A stretch of DNA of 64,000 nucleotides from an uncultured Desulfobacterales bacterium (GTDB lineage Bacteria; Desulfobacterota; Desulfobacteria; Desulfobacterales; B30-G6), in NCBI GenBank assembly GCA_964452555.1, contig CAYVMI010000018.1:32329-96328 (forward strand). The letters are read 5' to 3'. Positions 18,842-42,626 of the stretch are shown in pieces. Each line of letters begins with the position of its first letter. Position 1 is the first letter of the stretch. Below the pieces are notes generated by a model. It was given only the letters and a program-made list of their open reading frames with translations. It made no database searches and was not told the origin of the DNA. The position numbers and the translations under genes are program-made.

Positions 18842-18969
18842 GGCCTGATGTGGGCAATTGTCGAGGTTGCCGTAGCTACAAGGAAGATGCTGTTTCGCTA
18901 TAGTGTACTATGCGGGATGGCATCTGACGCAGTAGATGCGGTAAGATCGGCAATCCCGTAGGGTTTCAG
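18842..18969 (+). repeat. Rod-like structured repeat, copy 2
   Basis: About 14 mismatches over roughly 113 nt relative to copy 1 (aligned by eye); same orientation. Confidence 0.8.
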
Positions 18970-19054
18970 ATTTTAAGAAATTAAATGATTAGAATCCTAA
19001 TTGTTATATAATTTCTATCGATTATTCTTAAAATCTGAAATGCTCCCATTAGGC

Positions 19055-20878: not shown

Positions 20879-21178
20879 TTTTCCTCTCCTATTTATAAGG
20901 CTGTAGGCTATAGACTGTTAGGCTATTAGGCGCCTATAGCTCATTGTTATATGTTATAAGTTCTGTCTTAAACCTTTTAAACTTTTATACTTTATTCGCT
21001 CCCTCCAAAACTGTGATGCTGGTTGCTGGATGCTAGTTGCCGGATGCTGGGGCGCTAGGACGCTTTATAGCTGTACCGCGTAACCCGAATCCCACGACCC
21101 GAAACACAAAACCCGACCCCCGCAACCCGTTCTCTGCTTACTGCTTACTCCATACTGCTTACCGCTTCTGTCTCCTGA

Positions 21179-21823
21179 CTACTGCTCATCGCTGCTTCCA
21201 ATCCCGTGGATAAAAAGAGATACCAGCGGATCGGTCATGGATGCCAGGTCATATTTACTTCCGGAATGCAGCCACGTGTTGATAACCTCGTCCACCGCAC
21301 CTAAAATGAAGCGTTTGACCAAACCCACATACAAATCTTTACGGATGCTGCCCTCGGCCTGGCCCTGTTCCACAATTTCGGTCACAATATCCAGATACAT
21401 ATCAGACATTTCACGTATCTGGTCTTCCACCATGCGGGTCCGCTGGTGGGTTTCCGATTGGTACAAAATCGCCATATGGCGATCGGCCTGAAACTCCTGC
21501 AGATGCCGGCGGATCAGGTTGCCCAGCTTATCAATGGCGTTATCGGCCTTGTTCACCTCTTCCCGGAATCGCCCAAAAACCTGTTTGGTTTTGTAATTAA
21601 AAAACTGAAGCAGAATGTCATCTTTATTTTTAAAATATAAATAGATGGTACCGTCAGCCACCCCGGCTTCTCGGGCGATCTGGGCCACAGTTGACTGAAA
21701 AAAACCATTCTCGGCAAATATCTTGATGGCTGCCTCGAGGATGCGATGGTATTTGTCGTTATTTTTGCGCTTCTTGGGAATAATGCACCTCCGGTCTTTG
21801 AACCATTGTGAATGAATGCTCAT
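21179..21823 (-). CDS. TetR-family transcriptional regulator (FadR-like by context)
   Basis: HTH ILEAAIKIFAENGFFQSTVAQIAREAGVADGTIYLYF; start codon uncertain (see findings). Confidence 0.9.
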   Translation of the reverse strand: MSIHSQWFKDRRCIIPKKRKNNDKYHRILEAAIKIFAENGFFQSTVAQIAREAGVADGTIYLYFKNKDDILLQFFNYKTKQVFGRFREEVNKADNAIDKLGNLIRRHLQEFQADRHMAILYQSETHQRTRMVEDQIREMSDMYLDIVTEIVEQGQAEGSIRKDLYVGLVKRFILGAVDEVINTWLHSGSKYDLASMTDPLVSLFIHGIGSSDEQ

Positions 21824-24205: not shown

Positions 24206-24371
24206 AAGGTTTCACTTTCGTTTGCGCTAATCATAAGCCACCGACCTAGTCGGTGGTCGTTGACTCTCGTATTACCTTTTAAATTCGTTTGTTATCATCG
24301 CTATCGGGATCGCTATCGGGATCGGGATCGTTTCTTGATGAGTTATGCTCTGATGTTAGTGTTTCGATTTC

Positions 24372-24419
24372 GATACCGATACCGATACCGATACCGATAC
24401 CGATACCGATACCGATACC
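24372..24419. repeat. Perfect tandem hexamer (GATACC)x8
   Basis: Counted directly; flanked by degenerate units; imperfect inverse partner atcgctatcgggatcgctatcgggatcgggatcg at 24294..24330. Confidence 0.95.
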
Positions 24420-24680
24420 GATGGGGAAGATAAGCATATCCCCATGATTTTTCAAGCAAAGAAATAGATTGGTTTTAAGTTTTAGGTTTTAAGTTTTATG
24501 CTTGTATCAAGCTGAACGCCATCAGCCTAAAACAATCCTAACACTTAAAACCTAAAACCTAAAACTGAATATAAAACCTAAAACATAGACATCAATATCA
24601 GATTTTTATATATAATTTCAATTAGTTGAGTCTTTGCCCCCCCTAAAAACATATCAAGTACCACCTAGTGCCAATTTCTA

Positions 24681-24709
24681 TTGACAAGCCGCAGTCCGGC
24701 ATATACAAA
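24681..24709 (+). promoter_or_regulatory. Candidate sigma70 promoter for the hdr/met operon
   Basis: TTGACA-17 nt-TACAAA; weak -10. Confidence 0.35.
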
Positions 24710-24734
24710 TCTCCTTTGGTTTGCGAAGCTGATT

Positions 24735-24771
24735 TGCAAACGTTTGCGCTGCTGGGATGCAAACGTTTGCG
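24735..24771. promoter_or_regulatory. Two identical 14-mers TGCAAACGTTTGCG (12-bp perfect palindrome core), 23 bp apart; candidate LacI/PurR-type operators
   Basis: Cores at 24736..24747 and 24759..24770; extra half sites gtttgcg at 24719..24725 and ttgcaaac at 24780..24787. Confidence 0.6.
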
Positions 24772-24819
24772 GTCCCGAATTGCAAACCGAGAACAGGACT
24801 ACAACCAGGAGAATTAATT

Positions 24820-27800
24820 ATGCCAAAAGACGTTATCGGAGCGACGATGGTGGTCGGCGGTGGAATCGCAGGGATGCAATCAGCCCTGGATTTGGCCGAA
24901 TCCGGCTATTATGTATATCTGGTGGAAAAGTCACCGGCAATCGGCGGACTCATGTCCCAGCTGGATAAGACCTTTCCCACCAATGACTGTGCCATGTGAG
25001 TCATTTCACCCAAACTGGTCGAGGTCGGCCGGCATCTCAACATTGAACTGCTCACCAATACGGAACTCGTCAATCTGGAAGGAGAACCGGGCAATTTTTC
25101 GGCAAAGGTTCATCAGACACCCCGCTACATCGATCTGGATAAATGTACCAGCTGCGGTGAATGTGCCAAAGTTTGCCCCATTACCCGCCCCAATGAATAT
25201 GACCAGGGCCTCTCAACACGTCAGGCGGCCTTCAAAAAATACGCCCAGGCCATACCGGGTGCTTTTGGAATTGAAAAACGGGGCACAGCCCCGTGTAAGG
25301 CCACCTGCCCTGCGCATGTCAGTATCCAGGGCTACATCGCCTTGATCAACCAGGGCAAATATCAGGAAGCGCTGGAACTATTCAAAAAAGACCACCCTTT
25401 TCCGGGAATTTGCGGCCGCGTCTGTCATCACCCCTGTGAAGAAATCTGTACGCGCAATGATGTAGACCAGCCCCTGGCCATACGGGAACTGCATCGCTTT
25501 TTGGCTGATTATGAAAGACAACAGGGTGAATTCTATGTCCCCGAAGTCACCGAAACCCGTGAAGAAAAAGTAGCCGTCATCGGCTCCGGCCCGGCTGGTT
25601 TAGCAGCCGCTTATAGCCTGGCCCTTCAGGGTTATCAGGTCACGGTGTTTGAAAAATTGCCGGTGGCCGGTGGTATGATGTCCGTGGGCATTCCCGAATA
25701 TCGACTGCCCAGAGATATCATTGCCGAAGAAATTCGCGTGATTGAAAAAATGGGCGTGACCATCCAGACCGGCGTCACCTTTGGTGAAGACATTACCCTG
25801 GACAGTCTCAAACAGGATGGCTTTTCAGCTGTATTTATGGCCATCGGCCTGCATGGCGGCCGTAATCTGGGTGTTGAAAATGAAGATGCCGAAGGCGTTC
25901 TCCAGGGGGTTGATTTCCTGCGTGACAGTGCCATGGGCAAAGATGTGCCCATCGGTGAAGACGTACTGGTTGTCGGCGGCGGCAATGTGGCCATCGACGT
26001 GGCCCTCACAGCTAAACGCAAGGGCTCCAAAAACGTCACCCTGATCTGCCTGGAAGCCCGGGACGAAATGCCGGCCTGGCAGCACGAAATCGAAGAAGCC
26101 CTCGAAGGCGACATTGAGATTGTCAACAGCTTTGGCCCTAAGTCATTCTTCATTGACAAAAGCAACAAGGTCTCGGGGATTGAATTTAAAACCTGTACGG
26201 CCGTATTTGACGATGAGGGACGCTTTAATCCCCGGTATGACGACAATGTGTGTCAGCCCTTCTTTGGCGACACCGTCATTATCGCCATTGGTCAGAGCGC
26301 CCAACTCGAGCACATCGAGTCCCAGGGAATTCCGGTCACCCCCAGGGGCGGCCTGGAAGCCGATCCGCTTACGTTGCAAACCAAACTGGACTGGGTCTTT
26401 GCCGGCGGCGATGCCTTCTACGGTCCCAAATCGGTTGTGGACGCCGTTGCTTGCGGCAAGGAAGCCGCCGAGTCCATTCATCGTTTCATAAACGGCCAGG
26501 ATCTGGCCGCTGATCGGGAGCAAAACTGGGAATTTGATAAACCCGATATTGAAAACGAACCACACATGGATCGCACCACGGTACGCTGCCTGGATCCCGA
26601 AGCGCGTGAGTGTAACTTTTTGGAAGTCTCTTTTGGCTATAATGAAGATGAAGCCAAAACCGAAGCCCAGCGCTGCCTGGAATGCGGTATCTGTTCGGAA
26701 TGTTACCAGTGCGTCGAGGCCTGCCTGGCCGAAGCCGTGGATCATGACCAGAAACCCATGGACCGTGAGATCAAGGTGGGTTCCGTGGTCCTGTCTTCGG
26801 GGACGGATCTGTATGATCCCAGCGACCTGGCCCAGTTCTATCATTACGGCATCAATCCCAACGTCATGACCAGCCTCGAATTTGAACGCATCTTGAGCGC
26901 CTCCGGCCCGACCATGGGGCATCTGGTGCGGCCGTCCGACGAAAAAGAACCCCAGAAAATTGCCTGGCTCCAGTGCGTTGGTTCCCGCGACACCAACCGG
27001 TGCGGCAACGGCTACTGCAGCAGTGTCTGCTGTATGTACACCATCAAGGATGCCATGATCGCCAAGGAGCATTCCGGCGGCGATCTCGACTGCGCCGTGT
27101 TTTACATGGACATCCGTTCCTTTGGCAAAGATTACGAACAGTATTACGACCGCGCCCGCGACAAAGAAGGTGTTCGTTTTGTAAAAGCTCGCGTGCACAC
27201 CATCGCCGATGATCCCGAGACCCGCGATTTGATCATCTCTTTTGCGGACGAATCCGGGCAGATGCAGACCGAACGTTTCGACATGTTGGTTCTGTCCGTG
27301 GGCCTGCAGGTTTCTCAGGCGTCGGTCGATCTGGCCAAAACACTCGATATCGATCTGAACCATTACAACTTCGTGGACACCGATCCGTTTGCTCCGGTGG
27401 CCACCTCCCGTCCGGGTGTTTATACCTGCGGCATCTTTCAGGGCCCCAAGGACATCCCCTCTTCGGTTACCGAGGCCAGTGCGGCGGCCAGTGCCGCCGG
27501 CGTGGAAGTGGCCGCGGCCCGGGGAACGGCCATTAAGAAAATCACCCTGCCCGCAGAATTGGATGTGAGTGAGGCGGATCCGCGCATCGGTGTGTTTGTC
27601 TGCAACTGCGGCATCAATATCGGTGGCGTGGTGGATGTGCCTGCGGTGCAGGAATATGCCGGCACCCTCCCCGGTGTGGTTTATACCGACAACAACCTCT
27701 TCACCTGCAGCCAGGATACCCAGGAAATTATCAAGGAAAAAATCAAGGAAGAAAAATTGAACCGGGTGGTGGTTGCGTCCTGCAGTCCCAAAACCCACGC

Positions 27801-29253
27801 CCCCATGTTCATGGAAACCCTTGAAGCCTGCGGCCTGAACAAGTACCTGTTTGAAATGGCCAATATCCGCAACCAAAACTCATGGGTGCATGCCAATAAT
27901 CCGGATATCGCCACCCAAAAGGCCAAAGACCTGGTTCGCATGGCAGTGGCGCGGTCGGAACGATTGAGACCCCTCAAGGAAAAAATAATTGGGGTCAACA
28001 AGCGCGCCCTGATAATTGGCGGCGGAATCGCCGGCATGAATGCGGCTCTGCATATCAGTAAGCAAGGTATGCCGGTGACGCTGCTGGAAAAGAACAAAGA
28101 GCTGGGCGGCATGGCTAATAAACTTCACCATACCATCGAGGGAGCCGACATCCAGGCCTATATCAAGGAATTGATCGAAAAAGTCAGCGCACGTGAGGAA
28201 ATCGAAATCCTGACCGATGCGGTGGTCCTGACTTTTGACGGATTCCAGGGCAACTTTGCCACCGAAGTGGGTGTGGGGCCCATGCGTGAACCCCAGGTTA
28301 TCGAACATGGCGTCATTCTGGTAGCCACAGGGGCCAATGAATATCAGCCCACGGAATTTCTGTATGGCCAGGACGACCGTGTCAAGACCCAGGTGGAGCT
28401 GGCCGATGCCCTGCACCAGGGCTCCACCGGAGATCTGGATTGCGTGGCCATGATCCAATGCGTAGGATCGCGCAACGAAGATAATCCCAACTGCTCTCGC
28501 ATCTGCTGCCAATCGGCGGTTAAAAATGCCCTGACCATCAAGAAAGCCAACCCCGAAACACAGGTTTTCGTACTCTATCGGGATATGCGCACCTACGGCC
28601 TTTTGGAGGATTACTATACCGAAGCGCGCAAACAAGGCGTTATCTTCGTACGCTTTGACAAGACCGAACCTCCGGTTGTTGAGTCTGCTGACGAGGGTCT
28701 GCTGATCACGGTAAAGGATCATGTATTGCAGCAGCCGATCCAGATCCGTGCCGACCTTCTGGCCCTGAGCGCCGGGGTTGCGGCCGCGGACACCGAGGAT
28801 ATGAGCCGCATCATGAAGCTCAACCGCAATCCCGAGGGCTTTTTTATTGAAGCCCACGTCAAACTCAGACCGGTGGATATGGGCAGCGACGGCACCTTCC
28901 TGTGCGGTACCGCCCATGCCCCCAAGCTAATTACCGAAACCATCGCCCAGGCTCAGGCGGCGGCTTCACGCGCCATGACTTTCCTGGCCAAGGATGAAAT
29001 CAAGCTTTCGGCCATAACAGCCCAGGTGGATGTGGAACACTGTGTGAAATGTCTCACCTGCGTGCGGTCGTGTCCCTTTGAGGTACCCAAGTTTGATATC
29101 GAAAAAGGCGAAATCGTAATCGACGAGGCCATGTGCCACGGCTGCGGTGTTTGCGCCTCGGTTTGTCCCAGACAGACCATCAGTTTAAATTTTTATGAAG
29201 ACGACCAGATTATCTGTAAAATAGATGCTCTGCTTGCAGGAGGCGTTTCATGA
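24820..29253 (+). CDS. Giant HdrA-like flavoprotein (HdrL-type: two HdrA modules + inserted GltD/NfnB-like NAD(P)H module + ferredoxin domains), selenoprotein with UGA-Sec at 24997..24999
   Basis: Track ORFs 24757..24999 and 25342..29253 are in the same frame with no other stop between them. Sequence reads ...[18 protein letters not shown]... where HdrA has CxxC. ATG 24820 has AGGAGA upstream. [19 protein letters not shown] and [10 protein letters not shown] dinucleotide folds; CVGSRD/CVGSRN HdrA motifs. Confidence 0.85.
25021..25038 (+). promoter_or_regulatory. Weak candidate SECIS hairpin for the HdrL UGA
   Basis: gaggu(c)-ggccg-(g)caucuc, 21 nt after UGA; imperfect. Confidence 0.3.
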
Positions 29254-29672
29254 CCGACTTTGAACCGACCATTATCGCATTTTGCTGTGATTACTGAGGA
29301 TATTCGGCCGCGGACCTGGCAGGTTCCATGCGACTCGATTATCCGGCAAACATCAAGATTATCCGTGTGCCCTGCACCGGAAAAGTAGACGTAATGTATC
29401 TCCTCAGATCGATCCAAAAAGGCGCCGACGGCGTGTATGTGGTCGGCTGTCTGGAGGGGACTTGTCATTATAAGGAAGGCAACTTCAGGGCCCGCGAGCG
29501 GGTCAATTATGTGCGCTCGCTCCTGGAGGAAATAGGCCTTGAAGCTGATAGGGTTAGAATGTATAATCTCTCTTCTGGCGAAGGGCCGACGTTTGCGGCT
29601 TATGCCAGGGAAATGACGGAAAATATCAAGGCGCTGGGTCCCAATCCCATCAAGGAAAAGGACCAAGCCTAA
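29250..29672 (+). CDS. mvhD: MvhD/VhuD-like protein, selenoprotein with UGA-Sec at 29295..29297
   Basis: ATG 29250 overlaps the HdrL stop (ATGA). [25 protein letters not shown] matches the FCCNWC motif with Sec at the third Cys. Same frame as track ORF 29328..29672. Confidence 0.85.
29312..29327 (+). promoter_or_regulatory. Candidate SECIS hairpin for the mvhD UGA
   Basis: ggacc-uggca-gg(u)ucc with bulged U, 14 nt after UGA. Confidence 0.45.
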
Positions 29673-29687
29673 AACGGAGGAACAATT

Positions 29688-31007
29688 ATGGCTCAAGAAG
29701 CAATCAAGTTGGGCGGGAAAAAGAAAAGCATTTTCCTGGACAAAGTTAAAGAGCTTCTCCCCGAAGGGGGAAACCTCAATCTTTGTCTGACATGTGGAGC
29801 ATGCTCTTCCGGATGCCCGGCCACAGGTATCGGCGGAATGGATCCCCGAAAATTCCTACGCATGGCCGCACTGGGAATGGATGAAGAAATCATGAAATCG
29901 GAATGGGTATGGTGGTGCAGCATGTGTCAGCGCTGCATTTATGTGTGCCCCATGAAAATCGACATACCCCAGCTGGTTTTTAATGCCCGCGGATCATGGC
30001 CCCGGGAAGAACGACCCAAGGGAATTGTCGGTTCCTGTGACATGGCCCTGCGCAACGACACCTGCAGCGCCATGGGTGCCACCGAAGAGGACTTTCAGTT
30101 CGTGGTGGAAGATGTGCTCGAGGAATATCAGGAAAGTCAACCCGAATTCGCCGACATGCTAGCCCCCGTCAACAAAGAGGGTGCTCATTATTTCCTGAAC
30201 CAGAATTCACGTGAACCGGTTACCGAACCGGACGAAATGGTGCCGCTCTGGAAAATTCTGCACCTGGCGGGTGCCGACTGGACCTATGGAACCAAGGGTT
30301 GGGCCGCCGAGAACTATTGCATGTTCATGGCCGATACCAAAAACTGGGAACACATTGTGCGGGTAAAAGCCAAAGCCGTCGACGATCTAGGCTGCAAGGT
30401 CTGGCTCAACACCGAGTGAGGGCACGAACTTTTCGCAGTCCGGGCCGGACTGAAAAAATTCAATATCGAACATAATTTCGAAATCCAGAGTATCATTCAG
30501 CTTTATGCCCAGTGGGTCCGCGAGGGCAAACTCAAGGTCAACTCCGATTGGAACAAGGAACGCCAGATCAAGTTCACCGTCCAGGACCCCTGTCAATTGG
30601 TGCGTAAAACCTATGGCGACCCGGTTGCCGATGACCTGCGATACGTGGTCAAGGCGGTTGGGGGGGAAGAAAACTTCGTAGAAATGTATCCCAACCGCTC
30701 CAACAACTATTGTTGCGGCGGCGGCGGCGGATTCCTGCAAAGCGGATATCCGGAAGAACGGCGGGCCTATGGCAAGTGCAAGGCCGACCAGATCCTGGGC
30801 ACAGGGGCCGCTTACTGCATTACCCCGTGCCATAACTGCCACGCCCAGGTTCACGATCTATCAGAGCAGCGCGACCATCCGTGGGAAACCCTGCATCTGT
30901 GGACATTGATCTGTCTGTCTCTGGGTATACTGGGCCCCAATGAAAGGGCTTACCTGGGGGATGATCTCAAAGATGTCGACGTATTTCATCCTGAATCGGA
31001 GATGTAG
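29688..31007 (+). CDS. HdrD-like FeS protein (2x[4Fe-4S] + two CCG domains), selenoprotein with UGA-Sec at 30417..30419
   Basis: Track ORFs 29688..30419 and 30597..31007 share a frame, and the 177 nt between them has no stop. CLTCGACSSGCP and CSMCQRCIYVCP motifs, then ...KVWLNTE-U-GHELF..., then DPCQ...NYCCGGGGG...TPCHNCH. Confidence 0.8.
30431..30458 (+). promoter_or_regulatory. Candidate SECIS hairpin for the HdrD-like UGA
   Basis: cagtccg-ggc-cggactg perfect 7-bp stem (30436..30452), extended by tttt/aaaa; starts 17 nt after UGA. Confidence 0.6.
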
Positions 31008-31015
31008 GAGGAAAC

Positions 31016-31687
31016 ATGATAGTCGCCAAAAGGAAACCTTTTGATGAAATAAAAGAGCTGATCAAGGACCACAAAAAGGTCCTCATCGCCGGCTGCGGCA
31101 CCTGTGTGGCTGTCTGCCTGGCTGGCGGTGAAAAAGAAGTCGATGTCCTCAATGCAGAGCTCGACATGGCTCGGAAGCTGGACAACGATCCCATCAAGAC
31201 CGGCACCATCACTGTGGAAAGACAGTGCGATGTGGAATACCTGGAACCTTTTGATCCCATCGCCAAGGATTATGATGCCATCTTATCCATGGCCTGCGGG
31301 GTTGGTATTCAGTTTTTGGCCGAACGCTTTCCCGGAATTCCGGTCTATCCGGCGGTAGACACCACCGGCATGTCGGCCAACCTGGCTGTGGGCTGGTACG
31401 AAGAACGCTGCCGCTCCTGCGGTGAATGTGTTCTGGGAATGACCGGCGGCATATGCCCCGTCACCATGTGTGCCAAGGGACTTTACAACGGTCCCTGTGG
31501 TGGTACCAATGAGGGGAATTGTGAAATCAGCGACGATCAACCCTGTGCCTGGTTCCGAATCTACGAACGCCTGGCCACCCAAGATCGTCTGGACTGTATT
31601 CTGAATATCAAGGAGCCCGTGGGCTGGGACGACCAGGTACCGCGAACTTTGATTCAACCAGGATATAAAAAGCCAGAACAAGATTAA
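31016..31687 (+). CDS. metV: MetV-type methylenetetrahydrofolate reductase C-terminal-domain protein (Cys-rich small subunit)
   Basis: 223 aa; LIAGCGTCVAVC ... CRSCGECVL ... CPVTMCAKGLYNGPCGG; immediately upstream of metF. Confidence 0.8.
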   Translation: MIVAKRKPFDEIKELIKDHKKVLIAGCGTCVAVCLAGGEKEVDVLNAELDMARKLDNDPIKTGTITVERQCDVEYLEPFDPIAKDYDAILSMACGVGIQFLAERFPGIPVYPAVDTTGMSANLAVGWYEERCRSCGECVLGMTGGICPVTMCAKGLYNGPCGGTNEGNCEISDDQPCAWFRIYERLATQDRLDCILNIKEPVGWDDQVPRTLIQPGYKKPEQD

Positions 31688-31735
31688 CAGGTCTCATGGA
31701 GTGAATGACCTCATATACGACATAAGGTGATGCAT

Positions 31736-32680
31736 ATGAGCACAGAGGGAAACGGTTTTAAGTCAGATAGCAACTTGGAAAAGATTTTGCGGGCCGGTCA
31801 TTTCGCCTTTACCGGCGAACTCGGTCCCCCCCGAGGATCCGATGCGGTTGAGGTTCGTGAAAAAGCCAAGCATTTAAAGGGTATGGTAGATGCGGTTAAC
31901 ATCACCGACAACCAGACCGCCATGGTGCGTATGTCCAGCTGGGCCGCCAGTCTTTTGATCATGCAGGAAGGTCTCGAACCCAATTATCAGATGGTCTGCC
32001 GTGACCGCAATCGCTTGGCCATGCAGTCCGATATCTTAGGCGCTTACGCCCACGGCGTTCGCAACATGCTGTGTCTTTCCGGTGATCATCAAAAATTCGG
32101 TGATCATCCCAACGCCAAAGGCGTTTTCGATATTGATTCGATCCAACTCATCAGTATGGTCAAAAAAATGCGGGATGAGAGTAAATTTTTGGGCGGGGCC
32201 GAGTTGGAAGGCGCCCCTAAAATGTTTATTGGCGCAGCCGCAAACCCCTTTGCCGATCCGTTTGAATGGCGTGTTCACCGTTTGGCTAAAAAAATTCAAG
32301 CCGGTGTTGATTTTATCCAGACCCAGTGTATTTACAACATGGATAAATTTCGCAAGTTCATCAAACAGGCCAACGACATGGGACTAACCGAAAAGGTGTA
32401 CATCCTGGCCGGTGTCACCCCCATGAAGAGTGTCGGTATGGCCAAGTACATGAAGAGCAAGGTGCCCGGTATGGACGTCCCCGATGACATTATCAAGCGC
32501 CTCCAAGGCGCGGAAAAAGGTAAAGTTGCGGCCGAGGGTATCAAGATCGCCTGCGAGCAGATCGAAGAGTTTAAAGAAATGCAAGGCGTTGCCGGCGTCC
32601 ATCTAATGGCAATTGAATGGGAACATAAAGTCCCGGAAATCGCAGAACAGGCTAAGGTGCTGCCTCGCCCAGAGGTATAA
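31736..32680 (+). CDS. metF: Methylenetetrahydrofolate reductase
   Basis: ...FTGELGPPRG...VNITDNQ...LCLSGDH... MTHFR motifs; ATG 31736 preferred (AAGGTG 6 nt upstream) over track start 31727. Confidence 0.9.
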   Translation: MSTEGNGFKSDSNLEKILRAGHFAFTGELGPPRGSDAVEVREKAKHLKGMVDAVNITDNQTAMVRMSSWAASLLIMQEGLEPNYQMVCRDRNRLAMQSDILGAYAHGVRNMLCLSGDHQKFGDHPNAKGVFDIDSIQLISMVKKMRDESKFLGGAELEGAPKMFIGAAANPFADPFEWRVHRLAKKIQAGVDFIQTQCIYNMDKFRKFIKQANDMGLTEKVYILAGVTPMKSVGMAKYMKSKVPGMDVPDDIIKRLQGAEKGKVAAEGIKIACEQIEEFKEMQGVAGVHLMAIEWEHKVPEIAEQAKVLPRPEV

Positions 32681-32699
32681 CAATTATGAAAGGAGTGTC

Positions 32700-33242
32700 A
32701 TGAAAACATCACGTTTGATCAGCGTTTTTGTTCTCGTAGGGGTTCTAATGGCAAGTCCGCTAATGGCCAAAGATTTAAAAGGTAATCTGGGTGTCGGTTT
32801 CAACTCTCAATTCAGCCCCCATGGCGTGGACGCCATCTCCGGCAAATATTGGATCAACAATGAACTGGCGGTTCAGGGTCTCCTGGGATTCAGTTACTCC
32901 GACTCGCGCGACGTAATTGATTTGGGTGGCAGGGTATATTTCAAAATCAAGGACGAAGAAAACCTGCATGTGGATGCCATTGGCGGCCTCGGCTTCGCCC
33001 GTGTTGATCCGGATGAAGGCGACTCAGAAACCGCCACGTGGTTTAGTTTTGGGGTGGGTATCGAGTATTTCTTCAGCGGCCTCCCCAATCTCGGTTTTTC
33101 CACCGAGGTGGGTTTAACCATCAGGGATTACGAAGATGACACTTCCTTTGGAACCATGGCCGATTCCTTTATCGGTGCCGGCATCCACTACTACTTCGAT
33201 TTTATGTCGCCGACGGTTAAAAAGCCGGCGGAAACAGAGTAA
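32700..33242 (+). CDS. Small outer-membrane beta-barrel protein
   Basis: Internal start MKTSRLISVFVLVGVLMASPLMA (signal peptide, AAAGGAG upstream); alternating beta-strand pattern, C-terminal aromatic-rich strand. Confidence 0.7.
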   Translation: MKTSRLISVFVLVGVLMASPLMAKDLKGNLGVGFNSQFSPHGVDAISGKYWINNELAVQGLLGFSYSDSRDVIDLGGRVYFKIKDEENLHVDAIGGLGFARVDPDEGDSETATWFSFGVGIEYFFSGLPNLGFSTEVGLTIRDYEDDTSFGTMADSFIGAGIHYYFDFMSPTVKKPAETE

Positions 33243-33352
33243 CGAAAGGGTTTAGGGTTGAAGGGGTGAAGGGTGCCATTAGCTGATAGCAATCAGTTAA
33301 TAGCGAAATTCTCATTTCCTAAGGCTATTTTAAAATCCCGATTCAATCACTC

Positions 33353-33392
33353 AAAAAGCCATAGGCGATTGCCTATGGCTTTTTTGCTTTTT
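33353..33392 (+). terminator. Rho-independent terminator of the hdr-met-OMP transcription unit
   Basis: agccataggc-gatt-gcctatggct + tttttgcttttt. Confidence 0.8.
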
Positions 33393-33504
33393 ACCGAAAA
33401 CGACCCTTTAAATCCTCCAAATCCCCAACCCTAAGACCCTCAGATTCTTACCCTTTAATCCTTGAACCCGATTGACGACAGATAAGCTTTTAACTACGGA
33501 TAAA

Positions 33505-33560
33505 ATAGAAAAGCCATAAGCGGTCAGCGATCAGCTGCTCACTGCTTATGGCTTTTTGCT
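33505..33560. terminator. Bidirectional terminator (serves fdhA on the minus strand)
   Basis: agccataagc-(22 nt)-gcttatggct with T-runs on both strands. Confidence 0.65.
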
Positions 33561-33627
33561 TAATGCTTCTCTTTAGACCACCCTTAAACCCTACAAACCT
33601 CCAACCCTTCAACCCTCTCGAAAGCAG

Positions 33628-36399
33628 CTACGCCGCTTTCGAAATTCGGACCGCACAAACCTTGAGTTCGGGGATTCCGGAAACCGGATCCAGAGCAGCG
33701 TTGGTTAGTTTGTTGGCAGCTGCCTGGGCATAATGAAAAGGAATGAAAATCGTGCCCGGCACTGCCTGGTCAGAAACTTTAACGGCGGCCTCAAGATCTC
33801 CACGACGAGATTCTACTTTTACCATGGCGCCATCTTCCAGTTCATAGTTACGCGCGTCCTCAGACGATATTTCCACGTAACAAGCCGGAGCGCGCTCATT
33901 CAAGCCATCTGATTTCATGGTCATGGTGCCGGTATGGTAGTGATACAGGATCCGGCCGGTGGTCAGGGACAGCGGATAATCCGCGTCGATCTTTTCAGCG
34001 GGACCGTTGTAATCAATGGGATGCATGAGGCCTTTGCCGCGGGTGAACTGCTCTCTATGTAGAATCGGTGTCCCGGGGTGGTCTTTGCTGGGACAAGGCC
34101 AGTGCAGCCCCACCGCTTCGATGCGCTCATAATCGATCCCGGCATATGACGGGGTAACCGCGGCCAGTTCCTGCATAATGTCCTGGCTGGTATCGTAGGA
34201 CATGGCCACCCCCATACGCGTGGCTATCTCAGCCGTAATTTCCCAATCATCCTTGGCCTGGCCGGGAGCATCCACGGCTTTGCGTATACGCTGAACGCGC
34301 CGTTCACTGTTGGTGAAGGTACCTTCCTTTTCGGCAAAACATTTGGAGGGCAGTACCACATCCGCCAGTTGAGCCGTCTCGGTCATGAAAATATCCTGCA
34401 CCACCAAAAAGTCGAGATTTGTGAAACATTTTTCGGCATGATTCAAATCCGCATCCGACACCATCGGATTTTCACCCAGGATATACAAACCTTTGAATTC
34501 GCCGTCATGCGCTTTGGGCAGCATTTTGGTAATCGTCAATCCAGGCTCCGTGGAAATCCCGCTCACGCCCCAGGCGGTCTCCATTTTTTTGGCGGCTTCT
34601 AAGTCGGTCACCGGCTGGTAGCCGGAAAATACATTGGGAAGTCCGCCCATGTCGCAGGCGCCCTGGACGTTGTTTTGACCCCGTAAAGGATTGACACCGC
34701 CCCCTTCCACACCCATGTGACCGCAAAGCATGGCCAGATTGGCCAATGATTTCACATTATCGGTGCCATTGGTATGCTGGGTAATTCCCATGCAATAACA
34801 GATGCTGCCGGCCTTGGCCTGGGCATACGCTCTGGCAGCCTCGGCCAACTGCGCCTGGGGAATGCCCGTAATCTCTTCCACATAAGCCGGTGTATACTCG
34901 GCCACTGTTTTTCTGAGATCTTCGAATCCCTCGGTCCGTTTCTCAACAAAGTCCTGGTCATACAGGGCTTCATTGATGATGACATTCATCATGCCGTTGA
35001 TCCAGGCCACATCGGTACCCAGATTTTGACGCAACCAATAATGGGCAAATGAAGCCATCTTGATAAAACGCGGATCCACGACGATAAGCTTGGCACCATT
35101 GAAGCTGACCGCCCGTTTGATAAACGATGAAAGCACCGGATGGTTTTCGGTGGTATTGGATCCGGTAACCAAGATTACATCGGCCTTCTCGATTTCGCCA
35201 ATGGTATTTGTCATGGCGCCACTTCCGAATGCTGCAGCCAGACCGGCTACGGTGGAGGAATGTCAGAGCCGGGCGCAATGATCGATATTGTTGGTTTTTA
35301 ATACTCCCCGGGCAAATTTGTTGGCCAAGTAATTTTCTTCATTGGAAATCCGAGCCGAGGTGAGCACCCCCAGGCTGTCTGAGCCGTGGGATTCTTTGAT
35401 TTCACTGAATCGCTTGGCAACCAAATCCAGGGCTTCATCCCAGGTAGCCTTGCGAAAGCTGCCGTTCTCTTTGATCATGGGGTCGGTCAGTCGCTCGGGT
35501 GAATGAATAAAGTCGTATCCGAAGCGGCCTTTGACGCAGAGGCTGCCGTAGTTGGGTGCGGCCCCCTCCACACCGCTGACCTTGACCACCCGGTTGTCTT
35601 TGACATGCAGATAAAGCTGGCAGCCCACACCGCAATAGGAGCAGGTTGTACGGACCTTCTCGGTTTCCCATTGGCGTACCTGATAGCGGGCATCCTTTTC
35701 CACCAGCGCTCCCACAGGGCAAACCTGCACACATTCGCCACAAAATACACAATCCGAATCCTTGAGGGCCTTGTCCTCTTTACCCGCAATAATTTTGGAC
35801 TGGTTACCGCTATACCCGAACTCAATGGCATTGTTCACCTGGACTTCGTTACACGCCTGAACGCAGCGGCCGCATTTGATACAACGAGAGAAATCCCGGA
35901 TGATAAACGGATTGGCCGTTTCCATTGGATAAGGTGCCTGCGCATCTGCGAAGCGTTTCGGTTCCACCTGGTAACGGTAAGCCAAGTCCTGCAGACGGCA
36001 GTCCCCCCAGACCGGGCACAATTCCGAGCTGTCATCGTACTGCTGAACGTTCATCTGAAACTGGGACCAGTCATCGCTGCTGGTGCCCCGGATGGCGCAG
36101 TTGTGGTTCCCGGTGGACAGCATGAGCTGAATGATGGCCCGGCGCGCGGAAACGACGCGCGCTGATTCCGTCTGGACAATCATACCAGCCTCTGCCAAGG
36201 TGTCACAGGACGGTAGCAGGTCCTCTACACCCTCGACTTCAACCACACATATACGGCAGTTGCCTGTGGGCGCAGCGCCTTTCAGATAGCAAAGGGTGGG
36301 AATATCGATGCTGTTTCGTCTGGCCACGGCCAAGATGGTTTCATCTTTTTCAAAAGCCAAAGAGTTTCCGTTGATGATGATGTTCGGCTGATCACTCAT
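33628..36399 (-). CDS. fdhA: Formate dehydrogenase catalytic subunit with NuoG-like N-terminal [2Fe-2S]/[4Fe-4S] domains; selenoprotein with UGA-Sec at 35263..35265
   Basis: Track ORFs 35263..36420 and 33628..35214 are in frame. Junction reads [29 protein letters not shown], the canonical FdhA Sec site. Start either ATG 36420 or ATG 36399 (GAGGAAG 7 nt upstream). Confidence 0.9.
35234..35250 (-). promoter_or_regulatory. SECIS hairpin of fdhA
   Basis: On the mRNA: GUAGCC-GGUCU-GGCUGC, 12 nt after UGA. The loop GGUCU resembles my recollection of the E. coli fdhF SECIS apex (UGCA-GGUCU-GCA). Confidence 0.75.
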
Positions 36400-36742
36400 A
36401 TACGCTTCCTCTACATTCATTGGTTCCTAGATTCGGGTTATTAACTGAAATTTTTCAGCTGATACAACTCAGGATATGTATCCAAAAGCAATGCTTTTGT
36501 CAATGATGCGCGATACAAAACAAACGGTTGACGTTTTTGTATATCAAGAATTTTATCTTTGTCAAAAATATGTCTTCCTCGCGCGGGAATAAATGTAATG
36601 TCATACCGACAATACTTAACGTTTTCGGACATTTAACTAAAGTTTTATCATAAATTTGCCGATACCATTACGACGGGTATTTGTGGAATAGTCATTGCGT
36701 CCTGTTGCAGGTTGCGTTATAATAATTGTTGTCTCTGATTCG

Positions 36743-38664: not shown

Positions 38665-40185
38665 TCAAAGAACAGCGCCGATTTGCCAGGGCACGAATTC
38701 CAGGTCTCCAATGCCCAGATTCTCACTCTTGGTTGGTTTGCCGGACGCCGTTTCGATGATGTGCTCGTATATCACCGATCCCATTTCAGTAACACTGCGA
38801 AGGCCCTTCGCGATGGGACCGCAATCGATATCCATATCCTCGGCCATCTGCGCATATATCCGGGAATTGGAGGCCAGTTTGACAACCGGAACCGGCTTGC
38901 ATCCCAATACCGATCCGCGGCCCGTGGTAAAACAGATCATATTTGCGCCGCCGGCAACCATGCCGGTAATGGATACCGGATCGTAGCCGGGTGTATCCAT
39001 AAAGACCAGACCTTTGGACCGAACCGGGGCGGCGTATGGGTAAACATCCAATAAAGGCGTCGCGCCGGCTTTGGCCACCGCCCCCAGGGCTTTTTCAAGT
39101 ATCGTTGTCAAGCCCCCAGCCTTGTTACCCGGACTGGGATTATTGTTGATTTCAGATTCGTGCATGCGTGTATGGTTCCGCCACCAATTAACGACATCCA
39201 GGATCTTCCGGCCGACCTCCGGCCGAATGGCACGGCGGGCCAGAAACTGTTCGGTGCCGTAAATTTCAGTGGTTTCCCCCAATATGGCGGTACCGCCTTT
39301 GGCCACCAGAATGTCCACCGCAGCACCCAAAGCCGGATTAGCTGTCAGACCGGAAAATGCATCTGAACCGCCACATTCCAGACCCAGTGTCAAATGGGAT
39401 ACGGGAAGGGTTTGTCTTTTGATGCGGTTCACCTCGGGCAGCATGGCCGTAATTGTCGCGATGCCCCGCTCAACCGTCCGGCGCGTTCCGCCCAGCTTTT
39501 GGATATTCAAAACCGGTACGGGAATACCTGAACAGTTGACAAACTGCTGTGAAAAGGCATCCACATCCAGGACTTCACATCCCAAACCGACCATCAGTAC
39601 ACCACCAAAATTCGGATGCCGGCAAAACCCGGCCAGACAACGCTGCAGGTTCTGAATGCCGGGACTGGCGGCATTGTCACCGCATCCCATGCCATGCGTC
39701 AGGCTGACGACACCGTCGATATTGCCGTAGGGTGACAATCGATCCTGGTTGAAATGTCTAGCGATAAAACTGGCCACCGAGGCCGAGCAGTTGACGCTGC
39801 TGAGAATCCCGATGTAATTGCGGGTGCCCACACGGCCATCGGCTCTTTGGATTCCGGCAAACGAGCTGCTTAAATCATCGTAACGCCCGGATTTGGAGAC
39901 CGGCTGGCCCTCCTGGGGCTTAGGCTCATCCGGGTGAACCATATCAACATTATGAACATGAACGTGATCTCCGATATTTATATCACGCGAGGCGATGCCG
40001 ATGACTTGACCGTATTTAATAATTGGTCTGCCGCTATCGATAGGCTCACAGGCAATCTTGTGGCCCGCCGCAATGGTGTGATTGCTGGCGATTTGCGCGT
40101 TTATCCCGGTTCCCTCGCGTACGTCTTCCAGAACCACCATGACATTATCGCGCGGATTGATTTTTATATGATGTGTATTGCCCAT
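38665..40185 (-). CDS. UxaA-family dehydratase/lyase (SAF N-domain + altronate/galactarate dehydratase-like C-domain)
   Basis: 506 aa; N-terminal SAF-like segment, ...GTRNYIGILSSVNCSA...THGMGCG... typical of the family. Confidence 0.8.
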   Translation of the reverse strand: MGNTHHIKINPRDNVMVVLEDVREGTGINAQIASNHTIAAGHKIACEPIDSGRPIIKYGQVIGIASRDINIGDHVHVHNVDMVHPDEPKPQEGQPVSKSGRYDDLSSSFAGIQRADGRVGTRNYIGILSSVNCSASVASFIARHFNQDRLSPYGNIDGVVSLTHGMGCGDNAASPGIQNLQRCLAGFCRHPNFGGVLMVGLGCEVLDVDAFSQQFVNCSGIPVPVLNIQKLGGTRRTVERGIATITAMLPEVNRIKRQTLPVSHLTLGLECGGSDAFSGLTANPALGAAVDILVAKGGTAILGETTEIYGTEQFLARRAIRPEVGRKILDVVNWWRNHTRMHESEINNNPSPGNKAGGLTTILEKALGAVAKAGATPLLDVYPYAAPVRSKGLVFMDTPGYDPVSITGMVAGGANMICFTTGRGSVLGCKPVPVVKLASNSRIYAQMAEDMDIDCGPIAKGLRSVTEMGSVIYEHIIETASGKPTKSENLGIGDLEFVPWQIGAVL

Positions 40186-40187
40186 AC

Positions 40188-41339
40188 TTATACCTGATTC
40201 GGGTGGTCTAACCGCTGTACGGCCGTCACAACTACATCCACGGCCTTGTCAATATCTGCAGAGGTGGTCATCCTTCCGGTTGAGAAGCGCACGGTCCCTT
40301 TGGCCCATTCCAGCGGAACACGCATGGCTTCCAGTACATGCGAAAGGGTTACCGTGTCCGAATGACAGGCCGCCCCGGCTGAAGCCGCCACCTCCAGACC
40401 GATTTCTTCCAAAATACGATTGGCCTCAAGGTTTTTAAATGACAGGCTGAGCGTATTGGGCAGGCGCTTTTCCGGATGACCATTCAGGCGAACCTGCGCA
40501 AATTGAGCCGTGATGCCTGCATGTAGGCGATCGCGCATATCCTGGAGATATGCGGCCGATTTATCCGGATTTTGGGCCGCAATTTCACAAGCCAGGCCCA
40601 TGCCTGCGATCTCAAGTACATTTTCCGTACCAGCCCGCCAACCGCTTTCCTGGCCGGCCCCGTGGCAAAATTTTTGCGGCAGCATACCCTTGCGTACATA
40701 CAAGGCGCCAATACCTTTGGGAGCATAGATTTTGTGGCCGGCCACCGAAAGCAGATCAACGTTCATCTTTTGAACGTCAGTGGCAATTTTGCCAACGCTC
40801 TGAGCCGCATCGGTATGCATGCAAATGCCCTTTTGCCGGGCCACCCGAGCAATTTCTTCAATCGGCTGGATGGTGCCCACCTCGTTGTTGGCGTGCATGA
40901 TGGTGATTAAAATGGTTTCCGGCCGAATGGCGGCGGCGATGTCTTCGACACTTACCATCCCGGTGTCATCCACATCCACATAGGTGGTTTTGAATCCCTC
41001 TCCCTCAAGATATTGGCACACCTCCAGTACGGCCGGATGCTCGATTGTGCTGGTTATGATATGCTTACCCTTGTCTTTCAGAGATCTGGCCATGCCTATG
41101 ATGGCGTGGTTGTTGGATTCGGTGCCGCCGGATGTAAACAACACTTCTGCTGGTTGACAGTTCAGGAGTGCCGCCACTTGGTTTCGGGCTTTTTCTACGG
41201 CTTTTTTTGGTGCGATACCGTACCAGTGGGAACTGGAAGGGTTGCCGAACTCAGTTTCCAGATACGGCCGCATGGCCTCAATCACCTGTGGATCGTGCGG
41301 CGTGGTGCCATTATAGTCCAGATAGATAGGTTGAATCAT
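40188..41339 (-). CDS. Cysteine desulfurase (NifS/IscS class V aminotransferase)
   Basis: IYLDYNGTTP ... FTSGGTESNN ... SVAGHKIYAPKGIGALYVR (PLP lysine). Confidence 0.9.
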   Translation of the reverse strand: MIQPIYLDYNGTTPHDPQVIEAMRPYLETEFGNPSSSHWYGIAPKKAVEKARNQVAALLNCQPAEVLFTSGGTESNNHAIIGMARSLKDKGKHIITSTIEHPAVLEVCQYLEGEGFKTTYVDVDDTGMVSVEDIAAAIRPETILITIMHANNEVGTIQPIEEIARVARQKGICMHTDAAQSVGKIATDVQKMNVDLLSVAGHKIYAPKGIGALYVRKGMLPQKFCHGAGQESGWRAGTENVLEIAGMGLACEIAAQNPDKSAAYLQDMRDRLHAGITAQFAQVRLNGHPEKRLPNTLSLSFKNLEANRILEEIGLEVAASAGAACHSDTVTLSHVLEAMRVPLEWAKGTVRFSTGRMTTSADIDKAVDVVVTAVQRLDHPNQV

Positions 41340-41345
41340 GGTTTT

Positions 41346-41903
41346 TTATTCCTCGTAGGCATCACCCAATATACGTTTAATAACAGCCTGTTTCAATTTT
41401 GCATAATCATCCGTATCGCATACACCTGCTGAAACAATACGCTCTTTTTCCTTGATGTAATCCGCAAGCAGAACCCTGTCTGCGCACAACCTGTCCCGGA
41501 ATATACGGAATCGGACGGCCTCGTAGGAATCTTTCCTGACCACATGCACATACACCAGAAACGACGTACGGTCATAATTAAATGTCCCCATGAACACCGG
41601 CCGATCGTCAGGAAAGCGGTTTCGAAACTCTAATCCCTGCCGTTGAAAGCCCATCGCCGCCAGCAAGGATGTAGTTGTTTCCAATCGGTCTTCAGGATAG
41701 AGCGCCATCATATCGATCACACCTTTACCCGGGCACCCGGGTATGGCCGTGCTGCCAATGTGTTCCATCTTAAGTTCCGGACAATAACTTTCAGTTTTTT
41801 CTTTTATTATCCTGGCCACCTCCGGAGCCCTGTAATCATAGGGATGAAATCCGGCCAGTGGCTTCTCATATGACCCGATATACTTTTCCACGTGTTCAAA
41901 CAT
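41346..41903 (-). CDS. GrpB-family protein
   Basis: ...MEHIGSTAIPGCPGKGVIDMM... GrpB nucleotidyltransferase-like motif. Confidence 0.7.
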   Translation of the reverse strand: MFEHVEKYIGSYEKPLAGFHPYDYRAPEVARIIKEKTESYCPELKMEHIGSTAIPGCPGKGVIDMMALYPEDRLETTTSLLAAMGFQRQGLEFRNRFPDDRPVFMGTFNYDRTSFLVYVHVVRKDSYEAVRFRIFRDRLCADRVLLADYIKEKERIVSAGVCDTDDYAKLKQAVIKRILGDAYEE

Positions 41904-41921
41904 CGTGTCGTTTATGCCTCA

Positions 41922-42338
41922 TTAGCTTGTTATATTTTTGTAGACGGCAAGGAATTGCTTAGGATTGACAATGTCAATACCCATATAATTTTCAATCGCC
42001 AGAAGCGCTTTATCTCCGGATAAGATATAATCTGCTTTTAAAGCCACCGCGCATTCTATGAATTTGTCATCATCAGGATCATCAGCTACTATTTGCAGTT
42101 CTGGTGTTTTGGCCGTAAAGATGACATGAGTGCCGGTCGCGAAAAGACCCAGAAGTTCACCAAGCTCCTTTTCATCTTGAAGCCCCATACGTCGAAGGAC
42201 TTCCACATATTCGTCAATTATGGGTTTTGACAAACACAGCGAAATCTCGCCAGTTTCCCAAAAGCCTATAACCTTACGAGGGTTACCGCCAAAAAAGGAT
42301 GAGATAAAAACATTTGTATCCAGAACAACCTTGATCAC
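41922..42338 (-). CDS. PIN-domain toxin
   Basis: MIKVVLDTNVFISSFF ... ILSGDKALL; ATGA overlap with the upstream antitoxin. Confidence 0.85.
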   Translation of the reverse strand: MIKVVLDTNVFISSFFGGNPRKVIGFWETGEISLCLSKPIIDEYVEVLRRMGLQDEKELGELLGLFATGTHVIFTAKTPELQIVADDPDDDKFIECAVALKADYILSGDKALLAIENYMGIDIVNPKQFLAVYKNITS

Positions 42339-42583
42339 CTTTTATTTCTCACTTCTTGAATGACGCGCTGTATGTCCTTTGGCTCATAACCGCCGTTTTC
42401 TATTTTTCCGCCGATGCGGCCCCACAAATCATCAATATAAGTGCCGATATCTCTATCCCGGACATACGCTTCAAGTAGTTCGCGCACAACCTCACTGACG
42501 TTTTTTCCTTCAGATTTTGCGAGCTTATAGACCTGGGTCTTGAGGTCGGGATTTATCCGCACAATCATTTGAGTCGTCATCAT
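42335..42583 (-). CDS. Ribbon-helix-helix antitoxin
   Basis: QMIVRINPDLKTQVYKLAKSEGKNVSEVVRELLEAY RHH pattern. Confidence 0.75.
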   Translation of the reverse strand: MMTTQMIVRINPDLKTQVYKLAKSEGKNVSEVVRELLEAYVRDRDIGTYIDDLWGRIGGKIENGGYEPKDIQRVIQEVRNKR

Positions 42584-42626
42584 GTACCCCCAGATTAGTA
42601 TATATTGTATATACGATATATATCAA

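Follow-up and report, generated by a model that had tools for sequence, protein, structure and literature searches.

A selenocysteine-rich hdrL-mvhD-hdrD-metV-metF operon of Desulfobacterales as a probable variant of the Moorella-type methylene-tetrahydrofolate reductase

Do five closely packed genes of an uncultured Desulfobacterales bacterium, three of which contain an in-frame TGA codon, encode one methylene-tetrahydrofolate (methylene-THF) reductase and, if so, of which type? The genes hdrL, mvhD, hdrD, metV, and metF lie in this order on the plus strand of a 64-kb stretch of contig CAYVMI010000018.1 (assembly GCA_964452555.1), referred to here as the window, and a formate dehydrogenase gene, fdhA, follows downstream on the opposite strand. 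The window was analyzed by six-frame translation and open reading frame (ORF) listing, and domains were assigned with Pfam. Two samples of related loci, numbered with the prefix L, were used for comparison: 80 species-level genome loci anchored on HdrD and 80 metagenome loci anchored on MetV, 75 of which were informative. MetFV-HdrABC-MvhD of Moorella thermoacetica is a type IV methylene-THF reductase (MTHFR) known since 2014 (described in PMC8760232, PMC9430772, and PMC5861303). We consider it probable that the five genes encode one soluble, cytoplasmic selenocysteine (Sec) variant of this type IV (Moorella-type) enzyme. We infer complex formation, the direction of the reaction, and the electron partners, and our confidence in the identity of the partners is much lower than in the complex.

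A preliminary description, made from the sequence alone, had listed six genes and four in-frame TGAs in this region. All of them were located where it had placed them, and Pfam agreed on every domain. The spacings between the five plus-strand genes are -4, +15, +8, and +42 nt, a GGAG-type ribosome-binding site stands ahead of each gene, and a terminator scan inside the five-gene unit found no convincing terminator. The first gene, hdrL (24820-29253, plus strand), encodes a protein of 1477 aa and 161.3 kDa in which the TGA at 24997-24999 corresponds to Sec60. Its start is the ATG at 24820, which has the GGAG ribosome-binding site; position 24681 only marks the earliest TTG in that frame. The ATG of mvhD (29250-29672, plus strand) overlaps the hdrL stop as ATGA, and the 140-aa product is a [2Fe-2S] connector subunit of the FlpD family (E = 1e-48), with the TGA at 29295-29297 as Sec16. 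It is followed by an hdrD-like gene (29688-31007, plus strand), which encodes a protein of 439 aa that is predicted to be soluble and has its TGA at 30417-30419 (Sec244). The 223-aa product of metV (31016-31687, plus strand) matched PF12225 (DUF5981/MetV, E = 1e-32), the Fe-S/Zn subunit of MetVF-type MTHFRs. The catalytic MTHFR subunit (PF02219, E = 1e-40) is encoded by metF (31730-32680, plus strand) and is 316 aa long from the ATG at 31730; the alternative start at ATG 31736 (314 aa) is the call in public records. MetF matched TIGR00676, the model of NAD(P)H-type MetF, weakly (90 bits, cut-off 294), and its PDB matches had E-values of about 1e-11. No transmembrane helix was predicted in any subunit of the five-gene unit.

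The large subunit, HdrL, was compared with Moorella HdrA by the published coordinates of the latter. The Moorella protein has 1487 aa (162.8 kDa), an N-terminal TrxR-like domain that is broken by GltD, a second unit from aa 922, and the residue pairs E696/K750 and E1204/K1246 (Kremp et al. 2022, PMC9430772). In HdrL, the TrxR-like FAD domain of unit 1 was located by PDB sequence search at aa 10-153 (HdrA residues 147-290) and aa 618-842 (HdrA 292-508), and it is split by a GltD/NfnB-like FAD/NAD(P)H/2x[4Fe-4S] insert at aa 157-632. Unit 2 begins at aa 919, and the E/K pairs are E690/K743 and E1193/K1235. HdrL therefore fits the long Moorella-type HdrA in its GltD-split TrxR domain, in a second unit without an inserted ferredoxin domain, and in both E/K pairs. 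The domain content of the cluster and the colinearity of HdrL with Moorella HdrA bear out the proposed relation to the acetogen MetFV-HdrABC-MvhD system. The preliminary description had also contrasted HdrL with the acetogens, as a double-HdrA/NfnB fusion in place of HdrA; this contrast does not hold, because Moorella HdrA has the same architecture.

In the same PDB sequence search, Sec60 of HdrL aligned with Cys197 of HdrA. Cys197 is a ligand of the N-terminal [4Fe-4S] cluster in the partner protomer, and Moorella HdrA, itself a fusion, shows complementary Cys197 and N-terminal-domain loss (Chadwick et al. 2022, PMC9012536). Unit 1 of HdrL follows the same complementary logic, with Sec60 present and the N-terminal domain absent. 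Because of this agreement with the Moorella fusion, we infer an intramolecular pseudo-dimer for HdrL, with the selenocysteinate of unit 1 as a predicted ligand of the [4Fe-4S] cluster in the unit 2 N-terminal domain. Entry of NAD(P)H at the GltD insert would be reasonable by homology; in Moorella, HdrA is the NADH-oxidizing subunit and MetF the methylene-THF site (PMC8760232).

HdrB and HdrC of the acetogen enzyme had been proposed to be replaced by one HdrD-like protein, and the single 439-aa chain agrees with this in both its HdrC match and its predicted HdrC+HdrB fold. The N-terminus matched HdrC (E = 4e-11), which was the only half matched by the PDB sequence search, and Pfam assigned Fer4_17/Fer4_8 domains and one CCG domain (residues 297-388). 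The second CCG is intact (C302, C342-C343, C381, and C384). The first is degenerate, with Cys211 and E243-Sec244-G245 and no CxxC, and Sec244 takes the second Cys position of the degenerate motif. The columns of both are invariant. The HdrB-like half was found by fold search alone, using Foldseek on an AlphaFold2 model (pLDDT 83, pTM 0.85) of P0001, a Cys homologue that is 71% identical. The matches were EtfD of M. smegmatis (TM 0.66, the best), HdrB (TM about 0.65 on the target), and HdrC. The model indicates that the HdrD-like protein is a fused HdrC+HdrB fold, with an HdrC-like 2x[4Fe-4S] part at the N-terminus and an HdrB-like part at the C-terminus.

The best NCBIfam scores of this protein were all below threshold: HmcF 160 bits (cut-off 750), TmcB 149 (735), and DsrK 105 (400). 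The HdrB model was not among its NCBIfam matches. By these scores, it appears to be related to HmcF, TmcB, and DsrK but a member of none of the three equivalogs. No membrane partner gene of the cytochrome b or NrfD type was found adjacent to hdrD in the window or in the 160 related loci. DsrK, HmcF, and TmcB are cytoplasmic CCG subunits of sulfate-reducer redox complexes and are thought to act on DsrC. Since these are its nearest relatives, the HdrD-like protein would most likely act on a disulfide or trisulfide, carried by a protein such as DsrC or by a small molecule.

A second CCG protein is encoded nearby. The region 14562-21823 (minus strand) holds a fatty-acid oxidation electron-transfer cluster with a TetR regulator, a 607-aa acyl-CoA dehydrogenase (ACAD), EtfB/EtfA, and a 700-aa HdrF/EtfD-like membrane-anchored Fe-S/CCG protein with four to five predicted transmembrane helices. 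A membrane-bound CCG protein is thus encoded 6 kb from the soluble HdrD-like protein. In Desulfonema magnum and Desulfobacter postgatei, an ORF of 161-162 aa lies ahead of hdrD, which there is of the Cys type. This ORF was rejected as a candidate component, as the window lacks it and it has no relation to the operon.

The use of Sec in three of the five operon products and in FdhA had been proposed from the in-frame TGAs, and it was supported by comparison of orthologues. In the genome loci, TGA was fixed in 81/81 HdrD, 19/19 HdrL, 18/18 operon-type MvhD, and 19/19 FdhA sequences, and the metagenome loci gave the same result (60/60 HdrD, 37/37 HdrL, 47/47 MvhD, and 8/8 FdhA). More distant HdrD homologues (62-71% identity) have Cys at the Sec column, which is invariant, and Sec16 of MvhD aligned with the selenocysteine (X) of the solved VhuD chain 9SFI_K. 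Behind each of the four UGAs, 15-19 nt downstream, lies a hairpin with a GG(U/C) loop, and its nucleotides are invariant across orthologues while neighboring wobble sites vary. The hairpin of hdrL (25015-25032, plus strand), resembling a selenocysteine insertion sequence (SECIS), reads CUGGUCG-AGGU-CGGCCGG, and its 18 nt are identical in 19/19 orthologues. That of mvhD (29312-29326, plus strand), also SECIS-like, reads GGACCU-GGC-AGGUUC and is invariant in 18/18 orthologues. The SECIS hairpin of hdrD (30435-30453, plus strand), GCAGUCCG-GGC-CGGACUG(C/A), shows G-C to U-A covariation in 19 sequences, and 92% of cells were paired compared to 9-39% in slid controls. In the SECIS hairpin of fdhA (35234-35250, minus strand), GUAGCC-GGUCU-GGCUGC, the window has a compensatory G-C to A-U change relative to the GUGGCC...GGCCGC of orthologues.

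None of the four segments behind the UGAs had a significant single-sequence folding z-score (range -1.5 to +0.8), and the evidence for SECIS elements therefore rests on the comparative data. An Rfam scan of the whole window found no SECIS and no other RNA family, ARAGORN found no tRNA and no tRNA-Sec in the window, and a scan of the window for more TGA-split genes found none past these four. The fixed codons and the conserved or compensated hairpins indicate that the four UGAs are genuine recoding sites and not chance stops. UGA is used twice in hdrL, recoded at 24997-24999 and as the true stop at 29251-29253 inside the ATGA overlap; no hairpin of the conserved type lies behind the true stop. 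Two sequence subtypes of Sec-HdrD, VWLNTEUGHELFA (as in the window) and IFLNTEUGHVTFS, were seen among L046, L047, L050, L052, L053, L071, L072, L075, L076, L078, and L079. L053 (Desulfamplus) has both in tandem. In L076, which is nearest to the window in its MetV, MetF, and FdhA, the same operon position is taken by the other subtype.

If the five products work together, their genes should be found together elsewhere. The exact gene order of the window was found in 13 of the 80 species genomes, e.g., Ca. Desulfatibia, Desulfonema limicola, and SG8_13. Another 20 had some or all of the five parts in other orders or as partial sets. Complete alternative orders were metV-metF-hdrA-mvhD-hdrD (Desulfosarcina variabilis), hdrL-mvhD-metV-metF-x-hdrD, and hdrD-metF'-hdrA-mvhD-metV-metF. 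In all, HdrD, HdrA/L, MvhD, MetV, and MetF associate in at least five orders in 33/80 species genomes. With MetV as the anchor, hdrD was immediately upstream in 71 of the 75 informative metagenome loci, and among those with at least 6 kb of upstream sequence, all except L101 carry hdrL-mvhD. The operon is widespread in sulfate reducers of the Desulfobacterales, and the functional unit is well supported because the clustering is independent of gene order. The association is near-obligate from the side of MetVF and facultative from the side of HdrD.

About 20 of the MetV-anchored loci have an additional hdrA-mvhD(Cys) pair upstream. This pair stands directly 5' of hdrL in L002, L017, L045, L051, L064, L077, and about 20 of L085-L164, and it consists of an HdrA with Sec and a Cys-type MvhD with the motif FLCNWCAYAGAD. 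The window is without this pair and has in its place a gene for a class I lysyl-tRNA synthetase (PF01921; 22634-24205, minus strand), between the TetR/ACAD cluster and hdrL. Class I lysyl-tRNA synthetases are uncommon in bacteria. In L008, L009, and L014, hdrD directly follows the TetR gene, with neither the synthetase gene nor hdrL-mvhD between them.

As one complex, the five proteins could work as follows. MetF would hold the folate site, MetV and MvhD would be Fe-S connectors, and HdrL would be the flavin hub, with the GltD-like insert as the NAD(P)H site and the two TrxR-like FAD domains joined by Sec60 into the intramolecular pseudo-dimer. The HdrD-like protein, in place of HdrB and HdrC, would be a third electron exit or entry point, where the Cys211/Sec244 pair beside one non-cubane-cluster CCG domain may act on a di- or trisulfide such as that of DsrC. 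In a complete-oxidizing Desulfobacterales host, the complex would be mainly oxidative. Methyl-THF (about -200 mV) would be oxidized at MetF. A flavin of HdrL would then split the electrons, sending one part uphill to NAD(P)+ and the other downhill to the acceptor bound at HdrD. The mechanism would most likely be that of a flavin-based bifurcating or confurcating MTHFR.

Several observations weigh against this model. In 47/80 genome loci, hdrD has no HdrL, MvhD, or MetVF neighbors; 31 of these 47 have none of the six query proteins near, 12 of the 31 with full 10-kb flanks, and in Desulfospira hdrD sits between hrpA and parAB. Because hdrD stands alone in many genomes, Sec-HdrD is not an obligate cis-partner of MetVF. 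The window contains no dsr or apr gene and no Wood-Ljungdahl gene such as acs, fhs, or folD and, therefore, the reverse direction of the Wood-Ljungdahl pathway was taken from the Desulfobacterales taxonomy. The assignment of DsrC draws on sub-threshold family similarity alone. In Moorella, the second electron acceptor of the enzyme is unknown, and NADH-dependent reduction of methylene-THF was not observed (PMC8760232). For the HdrBC part of the Sporomusa and Thermacetogenium enzymes, a link to the membrane or the quinone pool instead of a disulfide has been suggested (for Thermacetogenium, PMC6895022).

The gene fdhA (36420-33628, minus strand) encodes an FdsA-type protein of 930 aa in which the TGA at 35265-35263 corresponds to Sec386. 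Pfam assigned an N-terminal [2Fe-2S] domain, NuoG-like 4Fe-4S domains, and a Mo/W-bisPGD domain, and residues 14-927 aligned end to end with FdsA of R. capsulatus (6TG9_A). No NuoE/NuoF/FdhB-like (FdsG/FdsB) gene was found anywhere in the 64-kb window. FdhA had been described as partner-less with a NuoG-like N-terminus, and these results agree. It had also been described as convergent with the five genes. It does lie downstream on the opposite strand, but it faces a small outer-membrane beta-barrel gene and not metF directly, and a strong bidirectional intrinsic terminator (33353-33384, both strands; a 14-bp stem between A5 and T5 runs) separates the plus-strand unit, here the beta-barrel gene, from the fdhA 3' end. 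Convergent, monocistronic, and set apart by the terminator, fdhA forms a transcription unit of its own, and the complex does not demonstrably include its product. A 63-aa ORF upstream of fdhA (36441-36632) showed no conservation anywhere.

One alternative is that the HdrD-like protein is an autonomous disulfide reductase, perhaps of DsrC, with the orphan FdhA as its main partner. Electrons from formate would pass along the [2Fe-2S]/[4Fe-4S] chain of FdhA to the HdrC-like clusters, and the position in the metVF operon would be a secondary recruitment in some lineages. The neighborhood of fdhA does track hdrD, with or without metVF: it is convergent just past hdrD (or hdrD-metVF) in 22/80 genome loci and 12 MetV-anchored metagenome loci, and the 22 span four upstream contexts (ACAD-TetR, the Zn-dependent alcohol dehydrogenase gene Zn-ADH, metVF-hdrA-mvhD, and hdrL-mvhD). 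It is monocistronic and partner-less in L005 and L009, as in the window. Moreover, in T. phaeum, hdrB and hdrC lie beside a formate dehydrogenase cluster, apart from metFV-hdrA (PMC6895022), and methanogen Fdh docks to Hdr via MvhD in 7BKB and 9T1S, which were among the best structure matches of FdhA and MvhD. However, convergent orientation and the terminator exclude co-transcription, and the 12 loci with full 10-kb flanks carry hdrD without fdhA. The window and L009 also share a wider synteny, ACAD-TetR ... HdrD ... FdhA-kinase ... ThrRS (threonyl-tRNA synthetase), so the adjacency of fdhA and hdrD may be inherited rather than selected. In FdsABG, the FdsA-type N-terminus normally docks to NuoE/F-like subunits, which also argues against this alternative. 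We find this explanation unlikely, and a link to formate, which rests on the neighborhood only, is speculative.

Another explanation would separate the two halves of the operon. MetVF alone would be a type II (ferredoxin-type) MTHFR, and HdrL-MvhD-HdrD would be an independent NAD(P)H/ferredoxin/disulfide bifurcating module that is merely co-transcribed because it serves the same catabolic regime. In several acetogens, MetVF works with reduced ferredoxin by itself (PMC8760232), HdrL and MvhD have other partners (DsrABC, Fdh) in D. autotrophicum and S. fumaroxidans, and HdrA-MvhD-HdrD occurs without MetVF in L015, L040, and L060. This is difficult to reconcile with the near-obligate adjacency of MetV to HdrD, MvhD, and HdrL in the 71 of 75 loci, with the re-association of the five parts in different orders, and with the co-purification of the homologous Moorella proteins as a complex (PMC8760232), and we give this separation a small chance. 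The complex could also be attached to the membrane and linked to quinones, a proposal made for Sporomusa ovata and Thermacetogenium phaeum, with the HdrD-like protein docking to a complex of the Qmo, Dsr, Tmc, or Hmc type and not acting on a soluble disulfide. Membrane association through HdrCB was proposed in S. ovata, and quinone-dependent MTHFR activity in T. phaeum; the nearest families, HmcF, TmcB, and DsrK, are cytoplasmic subunits of membrane complexes, and the best structural match, EtfD, is a membrane protein. The lack of predicted transmembrane helices in all subunits and the lack of an adjacent membrane-subunit gene in the window and the related loci make this very improbable. A soluble Sec variant of the type IV enzyme remains the reading that we prefer. 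A bolder form of it is doubtful. There, Sec-HdrD would be a soluble, DsrK/HmcF-like DsrC-trisulfide/protein-disulfide reductase and the shared electron outlet of the methyl branch in the reversed Wood-Ljungdahl pathway, to which both HdrL-MvhD-MetVF and FdhA dock. The oxidation of methyl-THF (about -200 mV) and of formate (about -430 mV) would be directly wired to sulfite reduction with flavin-based bifurcation to NAD(P)+/ferredoxin, bypassing the quinone pool, and the three Sec residues at Fe-S or CCG sites would be a kinetic adaptation.

Comparison with known systems shows which features are particular to this operon. Like the Moorella cluster, it has adjacent metV and metF, mvhD within the cluster, subunits that are all soluble (as predicted here), an HdrA of about 1480 aa with the GltD insert in the first TrxR-like domain and the second unit near aa 920, and both E/K "bifurcation" pairs at most 11 residues from the Moorella positions. 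It differs from Moorella mainly in that a separate HdrB (two CCG domains) and HdrC are absent and one HdrD-like protein has one intact CCG. Further differences lie in Sec at Fe-S ligand or CCG positions of HdrL, MvhD, and HdrD; in gene order (hdrCBA-mvhD-metVF in Moorella); and in its host clade of sulfate-reducing Desulfobacterales, where the enzyme is probably oxidative. The same protein types, with Sec in HdrL, MvhD, and HdrD4, are selenoproteins of Desulfobacterium autotrophicum HRM2, where HdrL was defined as an HdrA/glutamate-synthase fusion with mvhD always next (Strittmatter et al. 2009, PMC2702500). That paper, however, ties HdrL to NADH oxidation and to loci of DsrABC or Fdh, not to MetF, and it contains no hdrL-mvhD-hdrD-metVF operon.

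Clusters of metF with HdrABC were described in Seep-SRB1g and related syntrophic sulfate reducers (Murali et al. 2023, PMC10553843), and Met homologues were counted in Proteobacteria (Poudel et al. 2018, PMC6085437). These clusters resemble the window in having Hdr genes beside metF in Desulfobacterota with the Wood-Ljungdahl pathway, and they were read as Moorella-like bifurcating MTHFRs. They have HdrABC, though, and neither an HdrD-like subunit nor Sec was discussed there. The HdrD-like protein shares an N-terminal 2x[4Fe-4S] domain and a single C-terminal CCG with DsrK, HmcF, and TmcB, but differs in scores far under the cut-offs, the absence of a membrane partner gene, the extra Cys211/Sec244 remnant, and its place in a folate/Hdr operon.

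Methanogens offer a further comparison. The Vhu/Fdh-Hdr complexes of Methanococcales (9SFI, 9T1S) have Sec in MvhD/VhuD at the same alignment column, and the Cys197 position of HdrA serves as the inter-protomer cluster ligand in methanogen Hdr. In 9T1S and the Fdh-Hdr-Fmd complex of M. hungatei (7BKB), Fdh feeds HdrA via MvhD. These complexes are archaeal, with an HdrA homodimer instead of the fused pseudo-dimer proposed here, separate HdrB and HdrC that reduce CoM-S-S-CoB, FdhA together with FdhB, and no folate enzyme. FdhA of the window resembles FdsA of Rhodobacter capsulatus FdsABG(D) (6TG9), including the [2Fe-2S] and NuoG-like N-terminal part, but it has no FdsB/FdsG nearby and its Mo/W ligand is Sec and not Cys. 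The parts, their use of Sec, and the association of metF with Hdr in Desulfobacterota were all reported individually before, and the system as a kind is not new. In the accessible literature, neither the hdrL-mvhD-hdrD-metVF composition nor a DsrK/HmcF-like third module was found described; a prior description is possible.

The region upstream of hdrL contains a candidate regulatory element. Three tandem 23-nt units, GTTTGC-N11-GCAAAC (inverted repeats), lie at 24719-24787 (plus strand), directly 5' of the hdrL ribosome-binding site. The unit junctions form two perfect PurR/LacI-like palindromes, GCAAACGTTTGC, at 24736-24747 and 24759-24770, which are the only two matches in the window compared to 0.23 expected; no copy was found in 82 related loci. 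The element may be an operator or a 5'-untranslated region element. The intergenic region upstream of hdrL is 614 nt long and rich in simple repeats (24297-24598). These include (ATCGCTATCGGG)x2.3, (CGATAC)x8.7 in a perfect array (24371-24422), and an inverted repeat of 44 nt (24472-24515 / 24522-24565) made of GTTTTAA / CCTAAAA heptamers.

At the other end of the unit, the small outer-membrane beta-barrel gene (32700-33242, plus strand; 180 aa, signal peptide, weak match to PF13505) starts 19 nt past metF and ahead of the terminator. It is possibly the last gene of the metF transcription unit, so that one transcript would apparently serve both an outer-membrane beta-barrel protein and a cytoplasmic redox enzyme. 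Of the genome loci, only the closest, L076, has kept this gene, and its product is probably not part of the enzyme. Past fdhA, between the hybrid histidine kinase beside it and the threonyl-tRNA synthetase gene, about 9 kb (38665-47009) are absent from L009. This segment contains altronate-dehydratase-like, aminotransferase, GrpB, PIN toxin, Zn-ADH, AAT-family acyltransferase, metallo-beta-lactamase fold, methyltransferase, and VanZ genes, and it looks like an inserted block. Farther on, a second molybdopterin oxidoreductase of 647 aa, with no Sec and no partner gene identified, is encoded at 50921-52864, followed by a fused MsrA-MsrB methionine sulfoxide reductase at 52883-53896.

Abundant marine sulfate reducers mineralize acetate by the reversed Wood-Ljungdahl pathway, of which the oxidation of methyl-THF is the energetically awkward step. 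The operon described here is a widespread natural variant, found in 13 species genomes and more than 70 metagenome loci, and cultured carriers exist (Desulfonema limicola and Desulfosarcina variabilis). It is also a compact example of selenocysteine at Fe-S-ligand positions. For the Moorella-type MTHFR, whose electron acceptor has been missing since 2014, the exchange of HdrBC for a DsrK/HmcF-like selenoprotein suggests a disulfide of the DsrC type as a candidate.

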